From the NCBI GenBank assembly GCA_039815185.1, contig JBCBZT010000002.1, positions 32,001 to 96,000 of the forward strand: a DNA stretch of 64,000 nt, written 5' to 3'. Source of the DNA: Cyanobacteria bacterium P01_A01_bin.123. Its GTDB lineage: Bacteria; Cyanobacteriota; Cyanobacteriia; Phormidesmidales; Phormidesmidaceae. The translations under genes and the position numbers were made by a program. Positions within the stretch are counted from its first letter, which is position 1; the number at the start of each line of letters is the position of its first letter. The notes beneath the pieces are model-generated. The model had not been told where the DNA came from. It ran no database searches and was given only the letters and a program-made list of their open reading frames with translations. Shown here in pieces: positions 2,676 to 18,865 of this stretch.

Positions 2676-3110
2676 TTAAGCCGCTACGAATTCAAACGGG
2701 TTGAACACCGCAACACCCGACTCCAAAAGATCCTTGACATTGCGCGTTGCCACGCAGAGGTTATGCTGCCTCGCGATCGCGGCGATGAACAAATCGGGTT
2801 GACTAAAGGTATAGCCACGCTTTCGTCCCTGCTCAAGCATTTGCCGCCAGATTAAAATCGTCTCCTCATCAATATTGAGAATTCGCGCTGTAAACCACGG
2901 TCGTAATATGTTGTCGATCCAGTGTGTTAACTCCGCTGCAAAGGTGGAATCGGTAACCTGGCAAATGCCAAAGCGAATCTCTGCGAGCGTTATCGTACTC
3001 AAATAAAAGGACTGGGGCGGCTGGCTTTCACTCCAAGCCTTAACAGCAGGATGGCAACGCGGCTTCCTCAATTCTGAAACGATATTGGTATCTAGCAACC
3101 AGCCATTCAC
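2676..3110 (-). CDS. vapC: VapC-family PIN-domain toxin
   Basis: LLDTNIVSE, AEIRFG, DLFIAAIA and TRNVKD acidic PIN motifs; overlaps the upstream antitoxin by 4 bp. Confidence 0.9.
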   Translation of the reverse strand: MNGWLLDTNIVSELRKPRCHPAVKAWSESQPPQSFYLSTITLAEIRFGICQVTDSTFAAELTHWIDNILRPWFTARILNIDEETILIWRQMLEQGRKRGYTFSQPDLFIAAIARQHNLCVATRNVKDLLESGVAVFNPFEFVAA

Positions 3111-3472
3111 AATTCAATTTCTCGAATAGGGGATTGAACGCTAGCCGATTCAAATTCAAGCTTGCTTAATGGTGATTGAGAAAGGAGGGCATGCAAGTTA
3201 GGCTGAGCAAGCAACGGCAATATCTTTTCAAAAAGCTGAGTCGAGATAACGACTACCGCCTCTTCTCCTCGCACAGTAATCCTTTGTGGCTCTGTATGTT
3301 TTGCCTGCCTAACCACTTCACTCAATCGAGCTTTTGCATCTTCCAGTTTCCAATCTGGGAATTGCTCGAGTTGAGCAGCGAGTTGTTCACTGAGATGGGT
3401 TGATTCTGAAGACATATAGAGTACCTGACTAGCACTGGTCAGATCATATATCCATTGACAAATAGGCGGCAA
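3107..3472 (-). CDS. Phd/YefM-family antitoxin (true start probably downstream, about 3415)
   Basis: WKLEDAKARLSEVVRQA..EPQRITVRGEEAVVVIS. Confidence 0.85.
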   Translation of the reverse strand: MPPICQWIYDLTSASQVLYMSSESTHLSEQLAAQLEQFPDWKLEDAKARLSEVVRQAKHTEPQRITVRGEEAVVVISTQLFEKILPLLAQPNLHALLSQSPLSKLEFESASVQSPIREIEL

Positions 3473-7271: not shown

Positions 7272-8135
7272 ATGCCAGATCCTCGGCTGATTGCGATTAA
7301 AGGTACCGATAATGCCGACCGTCAGGGGGACGTGATTTTTGTCCATGGCCTGGGTGGCAGTGCCCTAGAAACCTGGCATACAGATAAGAAAGCCCTAGAA
7401 AAAGCTCAAAAGTCTGAGGGTGAGGCATTTCAACCGGGGCAGTTAAATTTTTGGCCTGCCTGGTTGGGTGAAGATTATCCCCAACTGGGGATTTGGTCGT
7501 TAGATTACGACATTGAACCCTTAGCTTGGCGGGGAAACACCATGCCGCTGACGGATCGGGCCACGAATATTCTGCAAGTCTTCTCGAACAAACGGATTGG
7601 CAATCGCCCCATTCTGTTTATCACCCACAGTATGGGCGGATTGTTGGTCAAGCAGATGCTCCGCAGCGCTTTTGATTTTGGCAACCCCCGGTGGAAAAAG
7701 ATTGAGGAAAATACGAAGGGGATTGTCTTTTTGGCGACGCCCCATTCAGGATCTGACTTGTCGAACCTGATGCAGTTCGTCAATCGGGTTTTGCAAGGGG
7801 TGATGCGGGCTAGTGTGAGTGTGGAAGAACTGGAAGCGAATCACTCGCGTCTGCGGGAACTGAACAATGTCTACCGGAACCATACTCGGCTTAGTCAGAT
7901 TCCGGTTGACGCCTATTTTGAGACACAGCCCTACAACCCCGTTGGGCTGGTCGTAGATCAGGCCAGTGCTGATCCGGGTATGCAGGGGGTGGTGCCCATT
8001 GGTGTTGGTGCAGACCACATCACGATTTGCAAAATTGCTCCTGAAGACAAGACCAACAGCATTGTTTATAACAGCATCAAGCTGTTTATAGAAGATTACT
8101 TACTCGCAAAGACAGAGGTACCTCAACGCCCTTAA
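7272..8135 (+). CDS. Alpha/beta hydrolase (SERAC1/SesB-like)
   Basis: VIFVHGLGG, THSMGG nucleophile elbow, FLATPHSGS, ADHITICK. Confidence 0.85.
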   Translation: MPDPRLIAIKGTDNADRQGDVIFVHGLGGSALETWHTDKKALEKAQKSEGEAFQPGQLNFWPAWLGEDYPQLGIWSLDYDIEPLAWRGNTMPLTDRATNILQVFSNKRIGNRPILFITHSMGGLLVKQMLRSAFDFGNPRWKKIEENTKGIVFLATPHSGSDLSNLMQFVNRVLQGVMRASVSVEELEANHSRLRELNNVYRNHTRLSQIPVDAYFETQPYNPVGLVVDQASADPGMQGVVPIGVGADHITICKIAPEDKTNSIVYNSIKLFIEDYLLAKTEVPQRP

Positions 8136-8161
8136 ATGCCCCTCCGTCTGATACTGGCATA

Positions 8162-10375
8162 GTGCCGGAGGGGCCAGCAGGTGTGCCATTGTTGGAGCAT
8201 CCATTTCACGGAGATGCTGACAAGGATAACTGGTTTGGAGGCTTTACTAATCATTCAGGCAGCAGTGGCCGAGTTGAAATCCATCAACATTATGGATTGC
8301 CCAACACCAAGCCCGATGCGATCCATAGGGATAAGAAGGAAAAGATTTTAATTGATGCAGTTTGGACGGAGGTAGAAGATCGTTTAAGGCAATCTTTGCA
8401 CAATGCGATTTTGATTCGCTTAGATATGGCGGAGCAGCGTAACCAGGTGAGTCGCCCTTGGGACAGCCAGTTGCGCACGGCTGAGCAGGGTATAAAACCC
8501 TTAGAACCCGGCACCCACATTGCCGACGTGTTTGATCGGCGGGATGTGGGGGGTAAGCTGCTAATTTTGGGTAATCCCGGTTCAGGAAAGACGACCACGA
8601 TGTTGGATCTGGCAGCAGTGCTGATTCAACGAGCCAATGCCCAGCCTGACCAGCCGATTCCGGTGATGTTTAATCTGTCGTCTTGGCAGAATGCCAAGCA
8701 AAGTATTACCGACTGGCTGCTGGGTGAATTGAAGCTGAAGTACGGGGTATCGCCAAAGCTGGGACAGACCTGGCTGGCGGAGAAAAAGCTGTTGCCGTTG
8801 CTAGATGGGTTAGATGAGTTACCCCCGCAGCGACAAGAACCTGTGGTGCAAGCGATTAACGATTGGTTGCAGTCGGGGGAGGGGCCAACGCGACTGTTGG
8901 TGTGCAGCCGCATTGAAGAGTATGGGCTGTATGGGGCAAAACTGGCGTTGAATGGGGCCATTTGCCTGGAACTGCTCACAGATATACAGCTCCAGGACTA
9001 CTTAAACTCATTAAGAATGGGTGACCTATGGCAGACTCTGCAACAAGACACCGCGCTGCTGGGCTTGGTGAGGACACCACTTGTGTTATGCGTCTCGGTT
9101 TTGACGCATGAGGCAATCGATCCAGATCAGTGGAGGCGAAAGCAAACAACCACAGAGCGGACGGGCTATTTGCTAGACGCATATGTAAAACGACAGTTGC
9201 ATAAAGCTGTCAAGAGAGAGAGAAATCTATCAGTCAAACAGTTCACAGCGAAACAAATTCGTCGCCAACTTACTTGGCTTGCAAGAAGATTAATAGCAAT
9301 TTCCTCAGATGAGTTTTCTATTGAAGAGATTCAATCAGATTTTCTAAATAAACGGCGAAAAAGAGTTTACAAGATGGTTGTTTCTCTTGGTTTCGGAATA
9401 ATTATCGGTTGCATTTATTGGCTATTATGCAGAATTATATATACCTTGGTCATCGAAAGCGACTATCTTGTTGCATATATTGAAAATCTTGTTAGTACTT
9501 CATTTCCTTCATTTCCTTCATTTAGACATAACCAAATTTTTGATTCTTATATAAAAGGATTTGATTTCGCCTTCCACAGAGGAGCTCTTTGGGGAATGAT
9601 AATATCAATGCTTTGCGGAGCATTTCTTGGCTTCAATGAAAGTAGAAGAAATATTATGTTTACGGAGGCATTTTCTTTTCAGGGAATAAATAGAAAAACT
9701 CTAAAGATTTGGTTGATTGCTAGTCTAGCTTTAGGACTTGGCTTTGGCTTGATCTGTTTGGCTACTTTTGGAATTAATATCCTATATTCTCCCCGATTTT
9801 ACATTTATTCTGAAACTATTGACTCGCAAGCTCTAGGGCCAGCAGGTTCTATCGAGCCCATATTTTTGAAAGGCTCATTTCCTTATAAAATGGGAGTTAT
9901 ATATCTCCTTTTTACAGCTATTTCTTGGATAAAATTCTGGATTTTGTTCGGCATATTCAAAGGTATAAAAAAGCCAATTGAGGTAAAATATTTCTCCTCC
10001 CAAGGGATCTTAAATAATTTCAGGATGGCTGCATTATATTCTTTCTTTATATGTATTTTGATCACATTTTTCTCATTTATATGCCTCTCTTTTATTTCTA
10101 ATGTAGGCAATGTAGTTCATATCGTTTGGATTACAATGCCAATAATTTTTTTGTGTGCAGTTCTGATGAGCTTGGCATCTCTTGGTTTGCCATTAATTCA
10201 ACATTTTGTGCTTCGATTCTTACTTTGTAAGAGTGAAGGAATTCCCTGGAACTATACCTGCTTCCTCAACCACTGCACTGAACGCCTCATACTCCAGCGA
10301 GTCGGCGGGCGCTATCGGTTCATCCACAAACTTATACAAGAGCATTTTGCAGCCATGCCGATGGGGCGAGAGTGA
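8162..10375 (+). CDS. NACHT NTPase with C-terminal transmembrane region (bacterial NLR-like); frame is open from 8072
   Basis: Walker A GNPGSGKTT, Walker B LLDGLDE, VCSR, RTPL; several hydrophobic helices; C-terminal IPWNY...LQRVGGRYRFIH. Confidence 0.88.
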   Translation: MPEGPAGVPLLEHPFHGDADKDNWFGGFTNHSGSSGRVEIHQHYGLPNTKPDAIHRDKKEKILIDAVWTEVEDRLRQSLHNAILIRLDMAEQRNQVSRPWDSQLRTAEQGIKPLEPGTHIADVFDRRDVGGKLLILGNPGSGKTTTMLDLAAVLIQRANAQPDQPIPVMFNLSSWQNAKQSITDWLLGELKLKYGVSPKLGQTWLAEKKLLPLLDGLDELPPQRQEPVVQAINDWLQSGEGPTRLLVCSRIEEYGLYGAKLALNGAICLELLTDIQLQDYLNSLRMGDLWQTLQQDTALLGLVRTPLVLCVSVLTHEAIDPDQWRRKQTTTERTGYLLDAYVKRQLHKAVKRERNLSVKQFTAKQIRRQLTWLARRLIAISSDEFSIEEIQSDFLNKRRKRVYKMVVSLGFGIIIGCIYWLLCRIIYTLVIESDYLVAYIENLVSTSFPSFPSFRHNQIFDSYIKGFDFAFHRGALWGMIISMLCGAFLGFNESRRNIMFTEAFSFQGINRKTLKIWLIASLALGLGFGLICLATFGINILYSPRFYIYSETIDSQALGPAGSIEPIFLKGSFPYKMGVIYLLFTAISWIKFWILFGIFKGIKKPIEVKYFSSQGILNNFRMAALYSFFICILITFFSFICLSFISNVGNVVHIVWITMPIIFLCAVLMSLASLGLPLIQHFVLRFLLCKSEGIPWNYTCFLNHCTERLILQRVGGRYRFIHKLIQEHFAAMPMGRE

Positions 10376-10388
10376 TGGAGGTACTTTG

Positions 10389-10625
10389 ATGGTCGAAGGA
10401 CTAATTTTTCGCTACGACAAAGTAGGAGATATCCTTTATATCGACAAATGCTCACCTTACCCAGAGCAAGAATCTGATGAAATTGGCGATGAAATGATTG
10501 CTCGCTTTAACCCTGACTCTGGGGAGATTGAAAATCTGGAAATTCTGTTTTTCTCTAAACGCCTATTTGATGCCAACATTTTGGAACTCCCCGTCATTGC
10601 GAATATGCGGTTGGCGGCATCTTAG
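10389..10625 (+). CDS. DUF2283-like small protein (putative antitoxin family)
   Basis: ATG at 10389; YDKVGDILYI...GEIENLEIL. Confidence 0.7.
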   Translation: MVEGLIFRYDKVGDILYIDKCSPYPEQESDEIGDEMIARFNPDSGEIENLEILFFSKRLFDANILELPVIANMRLAAS

Positions 10626-15128: not shown

Positions 15129-15497
15129 CTAGCCATTCATGCCGTCCTCGTCGTTTTCGACGGCGATCGCTTGATCAATCTCATCGGCATGGCTGGCATA
15201 GTAGGCCCGTGCCACGGTTAGGTCGAAGGGAGTGAGCCCAGGAAAGTTATGGAGCAGTTCAGCATCGTCAGCGCCTTGTTCTTGCAAGGAGATTAGCGTC
15301 CAAACGGAAATGCGGGTGTTACGGATACGAGCATGTCCGCCACAGACCCCCGCTGTTTTTTGGACGCTGCGGGTGGTGAGTTGTTGTTGGAACAGGGCAT
15401 AGTCCTCTGGAGGCAAGGACTCAACGGCCTGGACGAGGGATTCCACAAGTTTGGTGTTCATCAAAGCAACCGGGAAAAGGGGCTGAACTCTTTTCAA
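15129..15497 (-). CDS. DUF433-domain protein (antitoxin-like)
   Basis: TAGVCGGHARIRNTRISVWTL...ELLHNFPGLT. Confidence 0.8.
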   Translation of the reverse strand: MKRVQPLFPVALMNTKLVESLVQAVESLPPEDYALFQQQLTTRSVQKTAGVCGGHARIRNTRISVWTLISLQEQGADDAELLHNFPGLTPFDLTVARAYYASHADEIDQAIAVENDEDGMNG

Positions 15498-15739: not shown

Positions 15740-17881
15740 ATGGTCAACGTCGTTCGAGGCGATGTCGCTAAACCAGTTTCATCTAAAAGGCTAGCCGAAT
15801 ACTTTGAAGCCAGAGTTGATATTGATGGCAGCCTATACATGGGATATCCAATTATAGGAACTCCGCAAGGAGGCTATCAAATCGACGCTCTTTTAATATC
15901 AAGAGAACACGGCGTCGTTATTTTTAACTTGGTAGAAGGTATTGAAAGTGATGTTGATATAGAAGAGGTACAGGATGAGAGTATAACTAAAATTCAATCG
16001 AAGCTCCTTCAACATAAGGCACTGACTAGTAGAAGAAGGCTAATGGTTGAAATCAATGTTGTCACTTATGCACCGGCTTTAAGTCATAAGCCAAGTATCT
16101 CCGAAGATTATCATGTGCTCATCAATGAGAATGAGTTAGCAGAGTATCTCAATTCTCAGAGTTGGGAACATGATGAATATTTTGAGAAGCTTAATTCAGT
16201 AATTCAAGCCATTACCTCTATCAGAAAAAGAAAACAGAGGAACTATGTACAACAGGAGAATTCTCGAGGTGCAAAGTTAAGCAGATTAGAGGATTCAATA
16301 GCAAATTTAGACAGGAATCAGAGTGCTGCTGTAATTGAAACTGTAGAGGGAGTACAAAGAATTAGAGGGCTTGCAGGCTCAGGAAAAACTATTGTTCTAG
16401 CTCTCAAGGTTGCATATTTACATGCAAAGCATCCTGATTGGAATATAGCTGTAACTTTTAATACTCGCTCGCTTAAAGGTCAGTTCAAACAGCTAATTAA
16501 TACATTTACTATTGAACATACTAGCGAGGAACCAGATTGGGAAAAGGTAAAAATCATACATGCTTGGGGTAGTCCTTCCAAGGATGGAATTTATTATGAA
16601 TTTTGTAAGAGACATAATGTAGAATATCGAGATCTCAGCAGAGCCAGAAAAATCGCTAACTCATATGGTCAGGAGTTTGATGCTGTTTGCGAGGAATCCC
16701 TCAGTAAAGTATCAGAATTTGAACAATATTATGATGCGATTTTGATTGATGAAGCACAAGATTTCTCCAAACACTTCCTAAGGCTTTGCTATGAAATTCT
16801 CACAGAACCAAAGAGGCTAGTGTATGCCTATGATGAATTGCAAAGCTTAAATAAAAAAGTAATGGAATCGCCAGAGTCTATTTTTGGTGATGACTCTTAT
16901 GGTAATCCTCGTGTTCTATTGCAGAATCGTATTGGTGAACCTAAACAAGACATTATCTTAGAGAAATGCTATAGAAATTCCCGCCCAATTTTAGTCTCTG
17001 CTCATTCTCTTGGCTTTGGGATATATAGGGACGATGGGCTGGTTCAGATGTTTGAATACTCTGGTTTGTGGAGAGATATTGGCTACGAGGTTGAAGAAGG
17101 AAATTTAGAAGACAATAGTTCTGTAAAACTTGCTAGAAACGAGAATACAAGCCCAAGATTTCTCGAAACTCATTCCTCAATAGAGGACTTAATTATATTT
17201 AAGTCATTTGATACTGATGGTGATCAAATTGAATGGCTTGTTAACCAGATAGACACAAATTTGAAGCAAGATGAGTTAAAGTATGACGACATAATGGTCA
17301 TACATACAAATCCATTGACAGCCAGAAAAGCCCTAGGAGTTGCTAGAGAAGCTCTTTTTGACAAAGGCATTAACTCCAGCTTAGCCGGAGTAACGACTTC
17401 ACCCGATGAATTTTTCAATGAAAATTCCATCGTTTTCACTAGTATCAACAGAGCCAAAGGTAACGAAGCTGCAATGATTTATGTGATTAATGCACAATTA
17501 TGCTTTTCTGGTTTTGAGCTTGCGAGAAAGAGAAATATTCTATTCACTGCAATGACTCGAAGCAAGGCTTGGTTGAGAGTTGTCGGACATGGTGAGAGCA
17601 TGAAAAGCTTAGTGCATGAATATGAAAAAGTAAAACAAAAGAATTTTACTCTCGATTTCCTATATCCCAGCGAATCAGAACGAAGGAGAATGAATCTTGT
17701 TAATAGAGATATGAGTCCTAGAGAACGTGAACTTCTGAAAGACAGGAGTAAGCAGGATAATTTCAAGGAAGTACTTGAGGCTCTTGTGCAAGGTGAAATC
17801 CATCTTGAAGACTTACCTTCTGATGTTCAAGAGAGTTTGAAGAAATTTGCAACCAATCAGCCTGAGACCAAAAGTGACTAA
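15740..17881 (+). CDS. SF1 (UvrD-like) helicase with N-terminal NERD/nuclease-like domain
   Basis: GLAGSGKT, LIDEAQD, CYRN, SINRAKGNE and FTAMTRSK motifs; visibly AT-rich. Confidence 0.85.
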   Translation: MVNVVRGDVAKPVSSKRLAEYFEARVDIDGSLYMGYPIIGTPQGGYQIDALLISREHGVVIFNLVEGIESDVDIEEVQDESITKIQSKLLQHKALTSRRRLMVEINVVTYAPALSHKPSISEDYHVLINENELAEYLNSQSWEHDEYFEKLNSVIQAITSIRKRKQRNYVQQENSRGAKLSRLEDSIANLDRNQSAAVIETVEGVQRIRGLAGSGKTIVLALKVAYLHAKHPDWNIAVTFNTRSLKGQFKQLINTFTIEHTSEEPDWEKVKIIHAWGSPSKDGIYYEFCKRHNVEYRDLSRARKIANSYGQEFDAVCEESLSKVSEFEQYYDAILIDEAQDFSKHFLRLCYEILTEPKRLVYAYDELQSLNKKVMESPESIFGDDSYGNPRVLLQNRIGEPKQDIILEKCYRNSRPILVSAHSLGFGIYRDDGLVQMFEYSGLWRDIGYEVEEGNLEDNSSVKLARNENTSPRFLETHSSIEDLIIFKSFDTDGDQIEWLVNQIDTNLKQDELKYDDIMVIHTNPLTARKALGVAREALFDKGINSSLAGVTTSPDEFFNENSIVFTSINRAKGNEAAMIYVINAQLCFSGFELARKRNILFTAMTRSKAWLRVVGHGESMKSLVHEYEKVKQKNFTLDFLYPSESERRRMNLVNRDMSPRERELLKDRSKQDNFKEVLEALVQGEIHLEDLPSDVQESLKKFATNQPETKSD

Positions 17882-18199: not shown

Positions 18200-18865
18200 A
18201 TGCTAGACCATCTCGGCATTCATAATCAGGTGAGTACAATTACTCAGAAGTTGATATCTATTAACTTGTCAGTTAAACAAAAGTTTCCTTCATGTACGAC
18301 AACGGGAAGAGATAGCTACAAAATCTCATATTCGGGCATGCAGGATATTTCGATAGCTCTTAAAAATGTTGAGTATAAGGAAATATATGAAGAGTTAGAT
18401 GAAGATGAAAATTACAATATAAAAATGATTGATGGGGCACTAATACAACTCTTATATACTTACAAAGACTCTACCTTAGCTTCACATCGGCTAGCCTTCT
18501 TTCCATCTCCTTTTTTACACGACTTTCAGAATGAACCTGAAATATATGAGGAAGATGAAATATATGCAGATATAATAGCTAAAAATGTACTACCTGTTCC
18601 TGTCAGATTTGATTTTGATTATGATCCAAAAAAACACGTAGAGTTAGACCATCCTAAATGCCATTTAACTTTGGGACAGTTTAAGAACTGTAGAATCCCT
18701 GTGTGTTCTCCGATCACTCCAAATGCATTTATAGATTTTATTCTTCGCAGTTTTTACAATACTGCATTTCAAAAATTTACTGACCAATTAAATTTCTCTA
18801 GTAATTTATTTGATGAGACTATTACTTCTACAGAAAAGAAGCTAATACATTTAGCTATTTCTTAA
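18200..18865 (+). CDS. DUF2290-like protein (partner of the helicase, putative anti-phage system)
   Basis: YNIKMIDGALIQ, HRLAFFPSP, PVRFDFD, HPKCHLTLGQFKNCRIPV, FIDFILRSFYN. Confidence 0.75.
   Translation: MLDHLGIHNQVSTITQKLISINLSVKQKFPSCTTTGRDSYKISYSGMQDISIALKNVEYKEIYEELDEDENYNIKMIDGALIQLLYTYKDSTLASHRLAFFPSPFLHDFQNEPEIYEEDEIYADIIAKNVLPVPVRFDFDYDPKKHVELDHPKCHLTLGQFKNCRIPVCSPITPNAFIDFILRSFYNTAFQKFTDQLNFSSNLFDETITSTEKKLIHLAIS

Follow-up and report, generated by a model that had tools for sequence, protein, structure and literature searches.

The question raised by this locus is whether two overlapping reading frames, an alpha/beta hydrolase and a NACHT ATPase, are expressed as two separate proteins or are joined by recoding at the end of the hydrolase. 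The window (the whole stretch of DNA analysed) comprises 64,000 nucleotides, and all features described below lie on its forward strand. ORF1 (7272..8135) encodes a putative free effector of 287 aa. It carries a nucleophile-elbow Ser120 and His249, presumably the catalytic residues. The -1 frame (8129..10375) encodes a variable linker, a conserved N-terminal helix, a NACHT ATPase and a C-terminal multi-pass membrane region, 748 aa in all when counted from the slip site. Walker A (8570-8593) and Walker B (about 8798-8818) were both located, and the NACHT module matches PF05729 at 33.9 bits (Pfam cut-off 26.7). The hydrophobic multi-TM region (9365..10213, six hydropathy peaks) is a putative sensor. 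The G+C content of positions 9400-10375 is 36%, compared with about 50% in the remaining locus and the genome. PADLOC and NCBIfam gave no match for the NACHT ORF, no sequence relative of the hydrolase was found in the PDB, and the hydrolase as query against the genome and metagenome contigs retrieved no related loci.

A sequence-only reading of the window had proposed a programmed -1 frameshift here, with a fusion of about 1030 aa. Its account of the frames was borne out: positions 8127-8135 read CGCCCTTAA, the NACHT is read in the -1 frame with respect to the hydrolase, open from 8072 (preceding stop 8069-8071), the computed transframe product would have 1034 aa, and Pfam identifies the partners as a PGAP1/DUF676-like alpha/beta hydrolase and a NACHT. 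The putative slip site is C_CCU (8129..8132), a Z_ZZN tetramer at which Pro CCU would re-pair to CCC. It is followed by a 5-nt spacer (8133..8137) that includes the 0-frame stop TAA (8133-8135), and then by stem 1. As had been claimed, this stem has 9 bp; its 3' arm (8166..8174) is exactly reverse-complementary to the 5' arm (8138..8146), and contains GGAGG, a possible hidden ribosome-binding site. The strands of a putative stem 2 (pseudoknot) lie within the loop of stem 1 (8155..8161) and at 8182..8188; the latter overlaps the in-frame GTG at 8183-8185, where NACHT translation, if it began independently, would most plausibly start. The pseudoknot suggested earlier, CTGG (8154-8157) with CCAG (8174-8177), had to be abandoned: both motifs are present, but base 8174 is already engaged in stem 1, and the pairing is possible in just 2 of the 51 elements described below. 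Two other candidates were rejected. Re-initiation through a mini-ORF (ATG 8136 to TAG 8162, overlapping GTG 8162) is, among L001-L005, seen in this locus only, and an upstream internal Shine-Dalgarno (SD) sequence as stimulator has an SD-like counterpart in just 10/51 elements.

Taken alone, the hairpin is unremarkable (z = -0.86 versus dinucleotide shuffles). Of 100 junctions of this genome that pass a loose filter (tetramer, stop and stem), it has the best folding energy. The best Rfam match reached 18.2 bits against a gathering threshold of 40.3 (E 0.83). The case for frameshifting is a comparative one.

C_CCU, the 5-nt spacer and a GC-rich stem recur at 51 junctions (48 distinct), for the most part in cyanobacteria and in a few cases in other phyla; the majority of the loci are kin from a single family. 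Excluded before this count were duplicates, five rows in which the same hairpins had been read again on the reverse strand, L007-L009 (all within a single unrelated gene), L218 (stop six codons on, no covariance-model score) and L267, L287 and L291 (short ORFs, two of them 47 nt long). Cultured strains are among the carriers, for example Nodosilinea nodulosa PCC 7104 (L282) and Skermanella aerolata KACC 11604 (L266). In 51/51 the -1 frame crosses the element without a stop, and the upstream frame ends one or two codons past the motif in 50/51. The -1 ORF has at least 100 codons in 45/51; in the other six it is shorter, once because the contig ends. The downstream partners are mostly STAND ATPases, with a Walker A in 40/51 and none in 11. 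The upstream partners have hydrolase, CHAT, TIR, trypsin or kinase domains, most ending in a Death-fold-like adaptor. The hydrolase-NACHT pair of the sequence-only reading is no special case, the cassette being common to many effector-STAND pairs.

The retention in homologues for which that reading had called was found: they keep C_CCT and the overlap in the -1 frame, and their stem covaries. The cassette lies at the end of all four hydrolase homologues in 172 other genomes of the family, and their ATPase partners are of two different kinds. A relative diverged by 7-10% (X2 record 11) is alignable over 8138-8191, where neither flank aligns, and keeps the frame offset (27 nt difference). The architecture was present at 25 of 29 distinct sites in the pattern search. 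In each of the 11 new covariance-model matches, an ORF of at least 108 codons ends at the motif and the -1 frame is open. Among adaptor-ended ORFs selected by protein domain, a -1 ORF of at least 130 codons follows 6/8 that have the cassette, versus 0/25 without it. A strict pattern run on a 401-genome sample of the phylum matched only in this genome and at L036 (probably a chance site); it missed variants later recovered by the covariance model. Of the 80 loci listed from the metagenome pattern scan, one gave a covariance-model score, and a viral scan gave five matches, none with the architecture.

Conservation extends to the slip codon and the structure. The terminal Pro codon is CCT in 21/21 adaptor rows, while another invariant Pro uses its codons 8/6/5/2; the invariance of CCT is partly fixed by the search pattern, but the eight domain-picked elements also read CCT and 20 of the 25 cassette-less ORFs do not. 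The full heptamer A_AAC_CCT occurs in 14/51, and is missing at this locus. Stem 1 is 93.5% paired, with two-sided changes at 5 of 11 pairs (30 cells; 0/500 shuffles in the covariation test), 24 of the 32 aligned elements having come from a pattern that already fixed part of the stem. The register of stem 2, chosen post hoc, gives at least four pairs in 31/51 elements and in 14 of 19 new ones. In these 19 the value was 4.47, versus 2.23 for shuffles and 3.76 ± 0.26 (maximum 4.95) for swapped partners, so that stem 2 beats shuffles clearly and swapped partners modestly, in a register picked after the data had been seen. The conserved pseudoknot is probably 8155-61/8182-88. The element spans just 34, 37 or 40 nt, and its indels are multiples of three.

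The stop codon directly follows the Pro codon in 8/51 elements and comes one codon later in 42/51, where the spacing from motif to stem is still 5 nt. Since the stop is mostly one codon on and the spacing is constant, slippage on the tetramer, stimulated by the structure, is a better fit than P-site slippage that an A-site stop would drive. Of the earlier proposal of a Pro-tRNA slip, the re-pairing from CCU to CCC is kept, but the drive by an A-site stop is not.

We consider it very probable that positions 8129-8188 form a portable, IS3-like cassette for -1 programmed ribosomal frameshifting, made up of the C_CCU tetramer, the 5-nt spacer, a stem of 9-11 bp and a probable H-type pseudoknot. 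The analysis established the sequence, how it is conserved and covaries, how the frames relate and which domains are joined; the slip, its low rate and its purpose are inferred, as follows. The majority of ribosomes would reach a stop within two codons, yielding free effector (the hydrolase in this case). A minority would pause at the structure, where tRNA-Pro would re-pair from CCU to CCC, and would go on to complete the effector-NACHT-TM protein. The few NLR-like sensors could then oligomerise when activated and recruit surplus free effector, via the Death-fold-like adaptor where present and here via self-association of the effector, with an outcome that may resemble inflammasome- or apoptosome-like defence or cell death.

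IS3-family -1 signals consist of a Z_ZZN tetramer or heptamer and a 3' pseudoknot. The likeness extends to the tetramer, the 5-nt spacer, the GC-rich structure, the nearby 0-frame stop and the products, a short 5' protein and a long transframe fusion (OrfA and OrfAB) (PMC4066793, PMC5009743). C_CC.U is one of six shift-prone tetramers that were placed 5 nt before an IS3 pseudoknot (PMC4066793). In E. coli, tetramers with the IS3 pseudoknot shift at 0.26-5.6%, with C_CCU in the lower part of the ranking. The weakness of C_CCU in E. coli and the missing heptamer at this locus count against frameshifting. The cassette differs from the IS elements in using C_CCU, the surveyed IS tetramers being mostly A_AAG and U_UUY, and in residing in chromosomal immune-like genes, not transposases, where it is common to unrelated gene pairs.

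The main rival is translational coupling, in which the hairpin hides an SD sequence in its 3' arm, the terminating ribosome melts it, and the sensor starts at a nearby GTG (8183 here), giving two proteins and no fusion. GGAGG (8167-8171) does sit 11 nt upstream of the in-frame GTG 8183, and 21/51 elements, this locus included, have an in-frame start at most 15 nt past a GGAG-like 3' arm; the other 30 have no start codon in the 15 nt downstream of the stem. An SD-like motif with a start precedes Walker A in 23/40, whereas L215 has no ATG, GTG or TTG ahead of Walker A at all, and in L010, L017, L021, L024 and L181 the first start lies within or past the conserved N-terminal helix. A stop adjoining the stem, as in 42/51, would suit coupling, and a coupled two-gene form exists in L159 and L161, which lack the cassette and have GGAGGGG with a GTG over the upstream stop. 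Caspase-adaptor genes have also been described as operonic neighbours of AP-ATPase genes (Kaur 2021, PMC8195603). Against this, GGAG is altered in L029, L184, L206 and L257, and L167, L215 and L258 read GTA for GTG with the loop changed to match, so that stem 2 is kept and the start is lost. Moreover, coupling needs neither an invariant C_CCT, nor a -1 frame open from the motif on, nor indels in threes upstream of the start. Coupling is unlikely as the sole explanation, and could run alongside frameshifting.

Still less probable are transcriptional slippage, an RNA pause or processing hairpin that merely stabilises or attenuates the message, and a conserved recombination seam at which effector and sensor modules are swapped. 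The element is conserved while its flanks are replaced and joins many effector-sensor combinations, as a seam would, but compensatory changes favour RNA pairing over DNA homology. A run of three Cs is shorter than ordinary polymerase slippage needs, the stem is not followed by a U-run, and the structure comes after the motif at a distance of 5 nt, as in the IS3 test cassette. An artefact of assembly, or the recent loss of one base from what had been an ordinary fusion gene, would be in keeping with the common in-frame hydrolase-STAND fusions (194 longer relatives, and P0052 of Moorena) but is extremely improbable here and refuted for the cassette class as a whole, as this -1 offset and structure are shared by 51 junctions that come from several families and join unrelated partners, and also by the diverged relative. 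The only contig to cover the stretch in full (run X1, depth 30.6), which is probably the source of this DNA, showed 0 differences and 0 gaps, with no indel listed at 8129-8132 in this comparison of assembled contigs.

Programmed frameshifting, as the preferred reading, can be set beside known receptor systems. bNACHT/Avs STAND receptors with N-terminal effectors share the effector-NTPase-sensor layout, TM-type C-termini and a cyanobacterial expansion (10.1101/2022.07.19.500537, PMC13581612); in each of these papers, the single mention of 'frameshift' concerns phage genes. In-frame counterparts of the cassette loci are P0001, 13 of 29 internal-adaptor rows and P0052, whose hydrolase-NACHT-TM order is that of this locus in one frame; here, the effector is proposed to be joined through recoding only. 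Chromosomal -1 frameshifts also set the ratio of two products in copA of E. coli and in csoS2 (PMC5009743). Those shifts truncate in single-gene cases that share no cassette, whereas the one proposed here extends. The same difference separates it from dnaX. Another chromosomal -1 frameshift sets the ratio of two products in E. coli dnaX.

In the EAD or bacterial Death-like adaptor systems, a small helical adaptor is fused to caspase, TIR, trypsin, kinase or hydrolase effectors and to STAND cores, and was proposed to couple the two through homotypic binding (Kaur et al. 2020, 2021; PMC7159879, PMC8195603). There the two adaptor copies are on separate genes, whereas here both would come from one gene; the main texts of PMC7159879 and PMC8195603 contain 'frameshift' 0 times. 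The adaptor of the relatives is predicted to be a small all-helical domain (four-helix model, pLDDT 90), fused to effectors and to NTPase cores: it is found at the C-terminus of 41/51 upstream ORFs, and in frame upstream of Walker A in the 13/29 internal rows. ORF1 and the rest of this locus lack it. Pfam gave no EAD match among 21 adaptor members and no EAD10 match in six linkers, while EAD7 or EAD1 occurs in 10-52% of the members of its Atlas neighbours. Its top fold matches are mostly CARD/DD/PYD/DED, at only Z 5-6.6 and an rmsd of about 3; a kinetochore protein heads the list (Z 6.9).

No report of a frameshift at such effector-STAND pairs was found in the literature, where the supplements of Antonov 2013 and Kaur 2020/2021 could list some pairs. 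Conserved chromosomal frameshifts are rare in bacteria, and none was found described for immune receptors. The 60-nt element, with its natural compensatory variants, is easily testable. If the proposal is true, annotation would have wrongly split many single recoded genes of cyanobacteria into halves, listed as 'effector-less' NACHT/NB-ARC genes and as 'stand-alone' caspase, TIR or hydrolase genes, and the function would be missed if just one half were cloned. It would also directly answer how the EAD coupling model keeps the adaptors of sensor and effector matched and in the right ratio. On a wider view, to which we give even chances, bacterial NLR/apoptosome-like systems may have a general device in one mobile cassette for RNA recoding, which domain shuffling would have carried through cyanobacterial families and into other phyla. 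One gene would then supply a big pool of free caspase-like, TIR, protease, kinase or hydrolase effector together with a few sensor-fused nucleators bearing an identical docking surface, and would allow inflammasome-type amplification, possibly regulated during infection.

The alpha/beta hydrolase ORF (PGAP1/DUF676-like by Pfam) occupies 7272-8135 on the forward strand and ends CGC CCT TAA. The NACHT ATPase ORF (Pfam) lies on the same strand in the -1 frame relative to it, is open from 8072, and has a multi-pass hydrophobic region at its C-terminal end. The C_CCT motif (8129-8132), a 5-nt spacer and stem 1, a perfect 9-bp stem (8138-8146 with 8166-8174, forward strand), form the cassette, which here stands directly behind the hydrolase. 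The hydrolase terminus, the open -1 frame and the stem, all reported in the sequence-only reading, were confirmed by re-reading. The junction feature is real. In a comparison of contigs, a spanning contig, probably the source of this DNA, showed 0 differences and 0 gaps at the locus. Taken alone, the hairpin is within chance expectation (z -0.86); it ranks first among 100 loosely defined junctions across its own genome, which carries a single hydrolase copy and several NACHT-TM paralogues. Within the NACHT ORF, the TM sensor region (9400-10375) has a GC content of 36%, versus about 50% elsewhere, which suggests a swapped-in or fast-evolving sensor region. The hydrolase (7272-8132) also matches the PADLOC model DUF626_VIII (E 4e-24), which we take to represent a type VIII retron partner.

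Several other genes lie near the locus. A 713-aa helicase (15740-17881, forward strand) is a full-length match to the PADLOC 'Helicase' model PDLC03002 (1203 bits) and, by this similarity, is a possible defence gene; NCBIfam gave no match for the ORF that follows (18200-18865). Small toxin-antitoxin-like genes, including DUF2283 (Pfam), are located at 2676-3472 (reverse), 10206-10625 (forward) and 15129-15497 (reverse); from their translations, the small genes near the locus presumably include a PIN-like/Phd-like pair and a DUF433-like ORF.

In a relative from a second run, with flanking genes 7-10% diverged from the window locus, the hydrolase and NACHT pieces show an offset of 27 nt, which preserves the frame relation; between them only the hairpin (8138-8191) is alignable. 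Hydrolase matches were found in 4 of 172 other Phormidesmidaceae genomes. All four end in C_CCT followed by five bases, the same stem and, in the -1 frame, a P-loop ORF, the partner being a NACHT-TM protein once and a different STAND ATPase three times; in three the stop lies one codon further downstream with the spacer unchanged. A search pattern derived from these five loci (the window locus and the four homologues) matched 25 of 173 family genomes in 34 rows, against 4 for the reversed control pattern. At 25 of the 29 distinct sites that the rows represent, an upstream ORF terminates at or shortly after the motif and the -1 frame is open; one unrelated gene contains 3 more, and the last is ambiguous. 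Upstream ORFs were CHAT (caspase-like), TIR, trypsin-like, hydrolase or adaptor-only; downstream ORFs were NACHT, NB-ARC, nSTAND1/AAA_35-like or TIR-AAA. The sequence-only reading had proposed looking for a conserved CCCT-stop, the -1 overlap and a covarying stem in homologous gene pairs; C_CCT, the overlap and the covarying stem recur there, the stop in most lying one codon further on.

Most upstream ORFs terminate in a 70-aa helical domain, the adaptor, which is absent from the window locus. A search of the family with this domain gave 348 matches in 74 of 173 genomes, of which 59 were fetched by rank, leaving aside pattern-found ones and one contig-end case. The adaptor was C-terminal in 33 of the 59. 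Eight of these 33 ORFs carry C_CCT and a stem of at least 7 bp with the spacing unchanged; several show compensatory variants that were new to the set. Six of the eight have a -1 ORF of at least 130 codons; none of the 25 lacking the cassette has one longer than 105 codons. On 32 elements stem 1 was 93.5% paired (slid registers, 40-58%), and 5 of its 11 pairs showed changes on both sides (30 cells; 0 of 500 shuffles); these sequences are related, and the invariance is partly built in by the search pattern.

A set of 51 elements was compiled. The element spans 37 nt in 42, 34 nt in 8 and 40 nt in 1, and the 0-frame stop lies two codons on in 42, one in 8 and 34 in 1. The -1 frame is open across the element in all 51, the +1 frame in 40. 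A -1 ORF of at least 100 codons is present in 45 and a Walker A motif in 40; six elements preceding short ORFs may be decayed. The adaptor closes 41 of the upstream ORFs, hydrolases number 9, and 20 downstream ORFs belong to the NACHT-TM family of the window. The terminal Pro codon is CCT in all 21 adaptor rows, while codon choice varies at other invariant Pro, Gly, Arg and Leu positions. The full heptamer A_AAC_CCT occurs in 14. At the loci L159, L161 and L183, adaptor-ended effector ORFs precede the same NACHT-TM family; the cassette is lost and the NACHT is in the +1 frame.

Of 150 genomes of the family scanned with a covariance model, 26 gave a match; among further genomes of the class Cyanobacteriia 6 of 150 did, spread over four other families, as did 1 of the 80 metagenome loci listed. 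In all 11 new matches examined an ORF of at least 108 codons terminates at the motif, and in 10 the -1 ORF has at least 162 codons; the other leaves its contig. When 185,579 species genomes were scanned by pattern, 34 matches emerged, 26 of them cyanobacterial by title; 3 are chance-like, and the remainder includes Brasilonema and Allocoleopsis. Outside cyanobacteria, Skermanella aerolata has a TIR followed by a P-loop-TPR ORF, an Actinomycetota MAG (binning as deposited) has a kinase followed by NB-ARC-TPR at the cassette, and a Binatia MAG has a cassette with a short -1 ORF. At locus L258 the cassette connects CHAT-TIR with an Apaf-1-like NB-ARC-WD40 protein. Several metagenome loci in the range L037-L116 (e.g. 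L037, L040, L043) contain a 42-nt palindrome matched on either strand by the hairpin pattern; it is present in many copies per assembly, has no covariance-model score and is probably an unrelated repeat.

The CTGG/CCAG pseudoknot pairing of the sequence-only reading is possible in only 2 of 51 elements. It was replaced by a stem 2 in which the loop end pairs with bases 5-10 nt past stem 1 (in the window 8155-8161 with 8182-8188, forward strand). In the first 33 elements (L218 included, later dropped), where the register was picked after inspection, the mean was 4.03 pairs versus 2.84 ± 0.17 for swapped partners; in 19 later elements it was 4.47, with shuffles at 2.23 and swaps at 3.76 ± 0.26. 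The strands vary between loci yet remain complementary. About a third of elements, mostly of one clade, have three or fewer pairs. The pseudoknot is probable, short of proof.

In E. coli tests, C_CC.U was among six tetramers prone to shifting when placed 5 nt ahead of the IS3 pseudoknot (PMC4066793). The anatomy of the window element matches this IS3-type design, and we infer that the cassette is a portable IS3-type -1 frameshift signal in NLR-like genes. The main interpretation of the sequence-only reading, a programmed slip joining effector to sensor, is supported with corrections, among them the exchanged pseudoknot pairing. A minority of ribosomes would slip to -1 and produce a hydrolase-NACHT-TM protein, computed at 1034 aa (about 1030 had been estimated), and free hydrolase would be the majority product. 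A natural one-frame hydrolase-NACHT-TM protein is found in Moorena (P0052; hydrolase 48% identical, NACHT-TM 31% over 677 aa). Coupled initiation of the downstream ORF may coexist with the slip, since the 3' arm contains GGAGG 11 nt ahead of an in-frame GTG in the window, a start is similarly placed in 21 of 51 elements, and in two cassette-less loci a GGAGGGG-GTG overlaps the upstream stop and the NACHT lies in the +1 frame, as it does in a third, decayed locus. Coupling cannot account for the 30 elements that lack a start at this place, for L215, with no start ahead of the P-loop, or for the GTG-to-GTA changes that preserve stem 2. For the putative frameshift signal, Rfam gave no match, and a literature search, covering papers outside subscription, found no recoded effector-STAND genes.

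A Gly/Asn/Ser-rich linker before the NACHT helix was seen in many loci, at about 8220-8290 in the window and just past the cassette in L012, L015, L016, L020, L022, L023 and L026; L159 and L161 have it in duplicate. The motif may serve in amyloid-type signalling; a Pfam search of six such linkers gave no match.

The adaptor of the relatives has a predicted four-helix fold; its similarity to Death-fold domains is at moderate Z, and it also resembles EAD1/EAD7-bearing clusters. From the effector and sensor families, the system may act in defence or cell death, in which sensing at the membrane would be followed by membrane-lipid hydrolysis. Kaur et al. name TIR, kinase, caspase, trypsin and hydrolase as adaptor partners, with caspase-adaptor versions sharing operons with AP-ATPases (PMC8195603), and propose homotypic coupling between an adaptor on the core NTPase and a second copy on free effectors (PMC7159879). 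If the junctions are frameshifted, both adaptor copies would arise from one gene.
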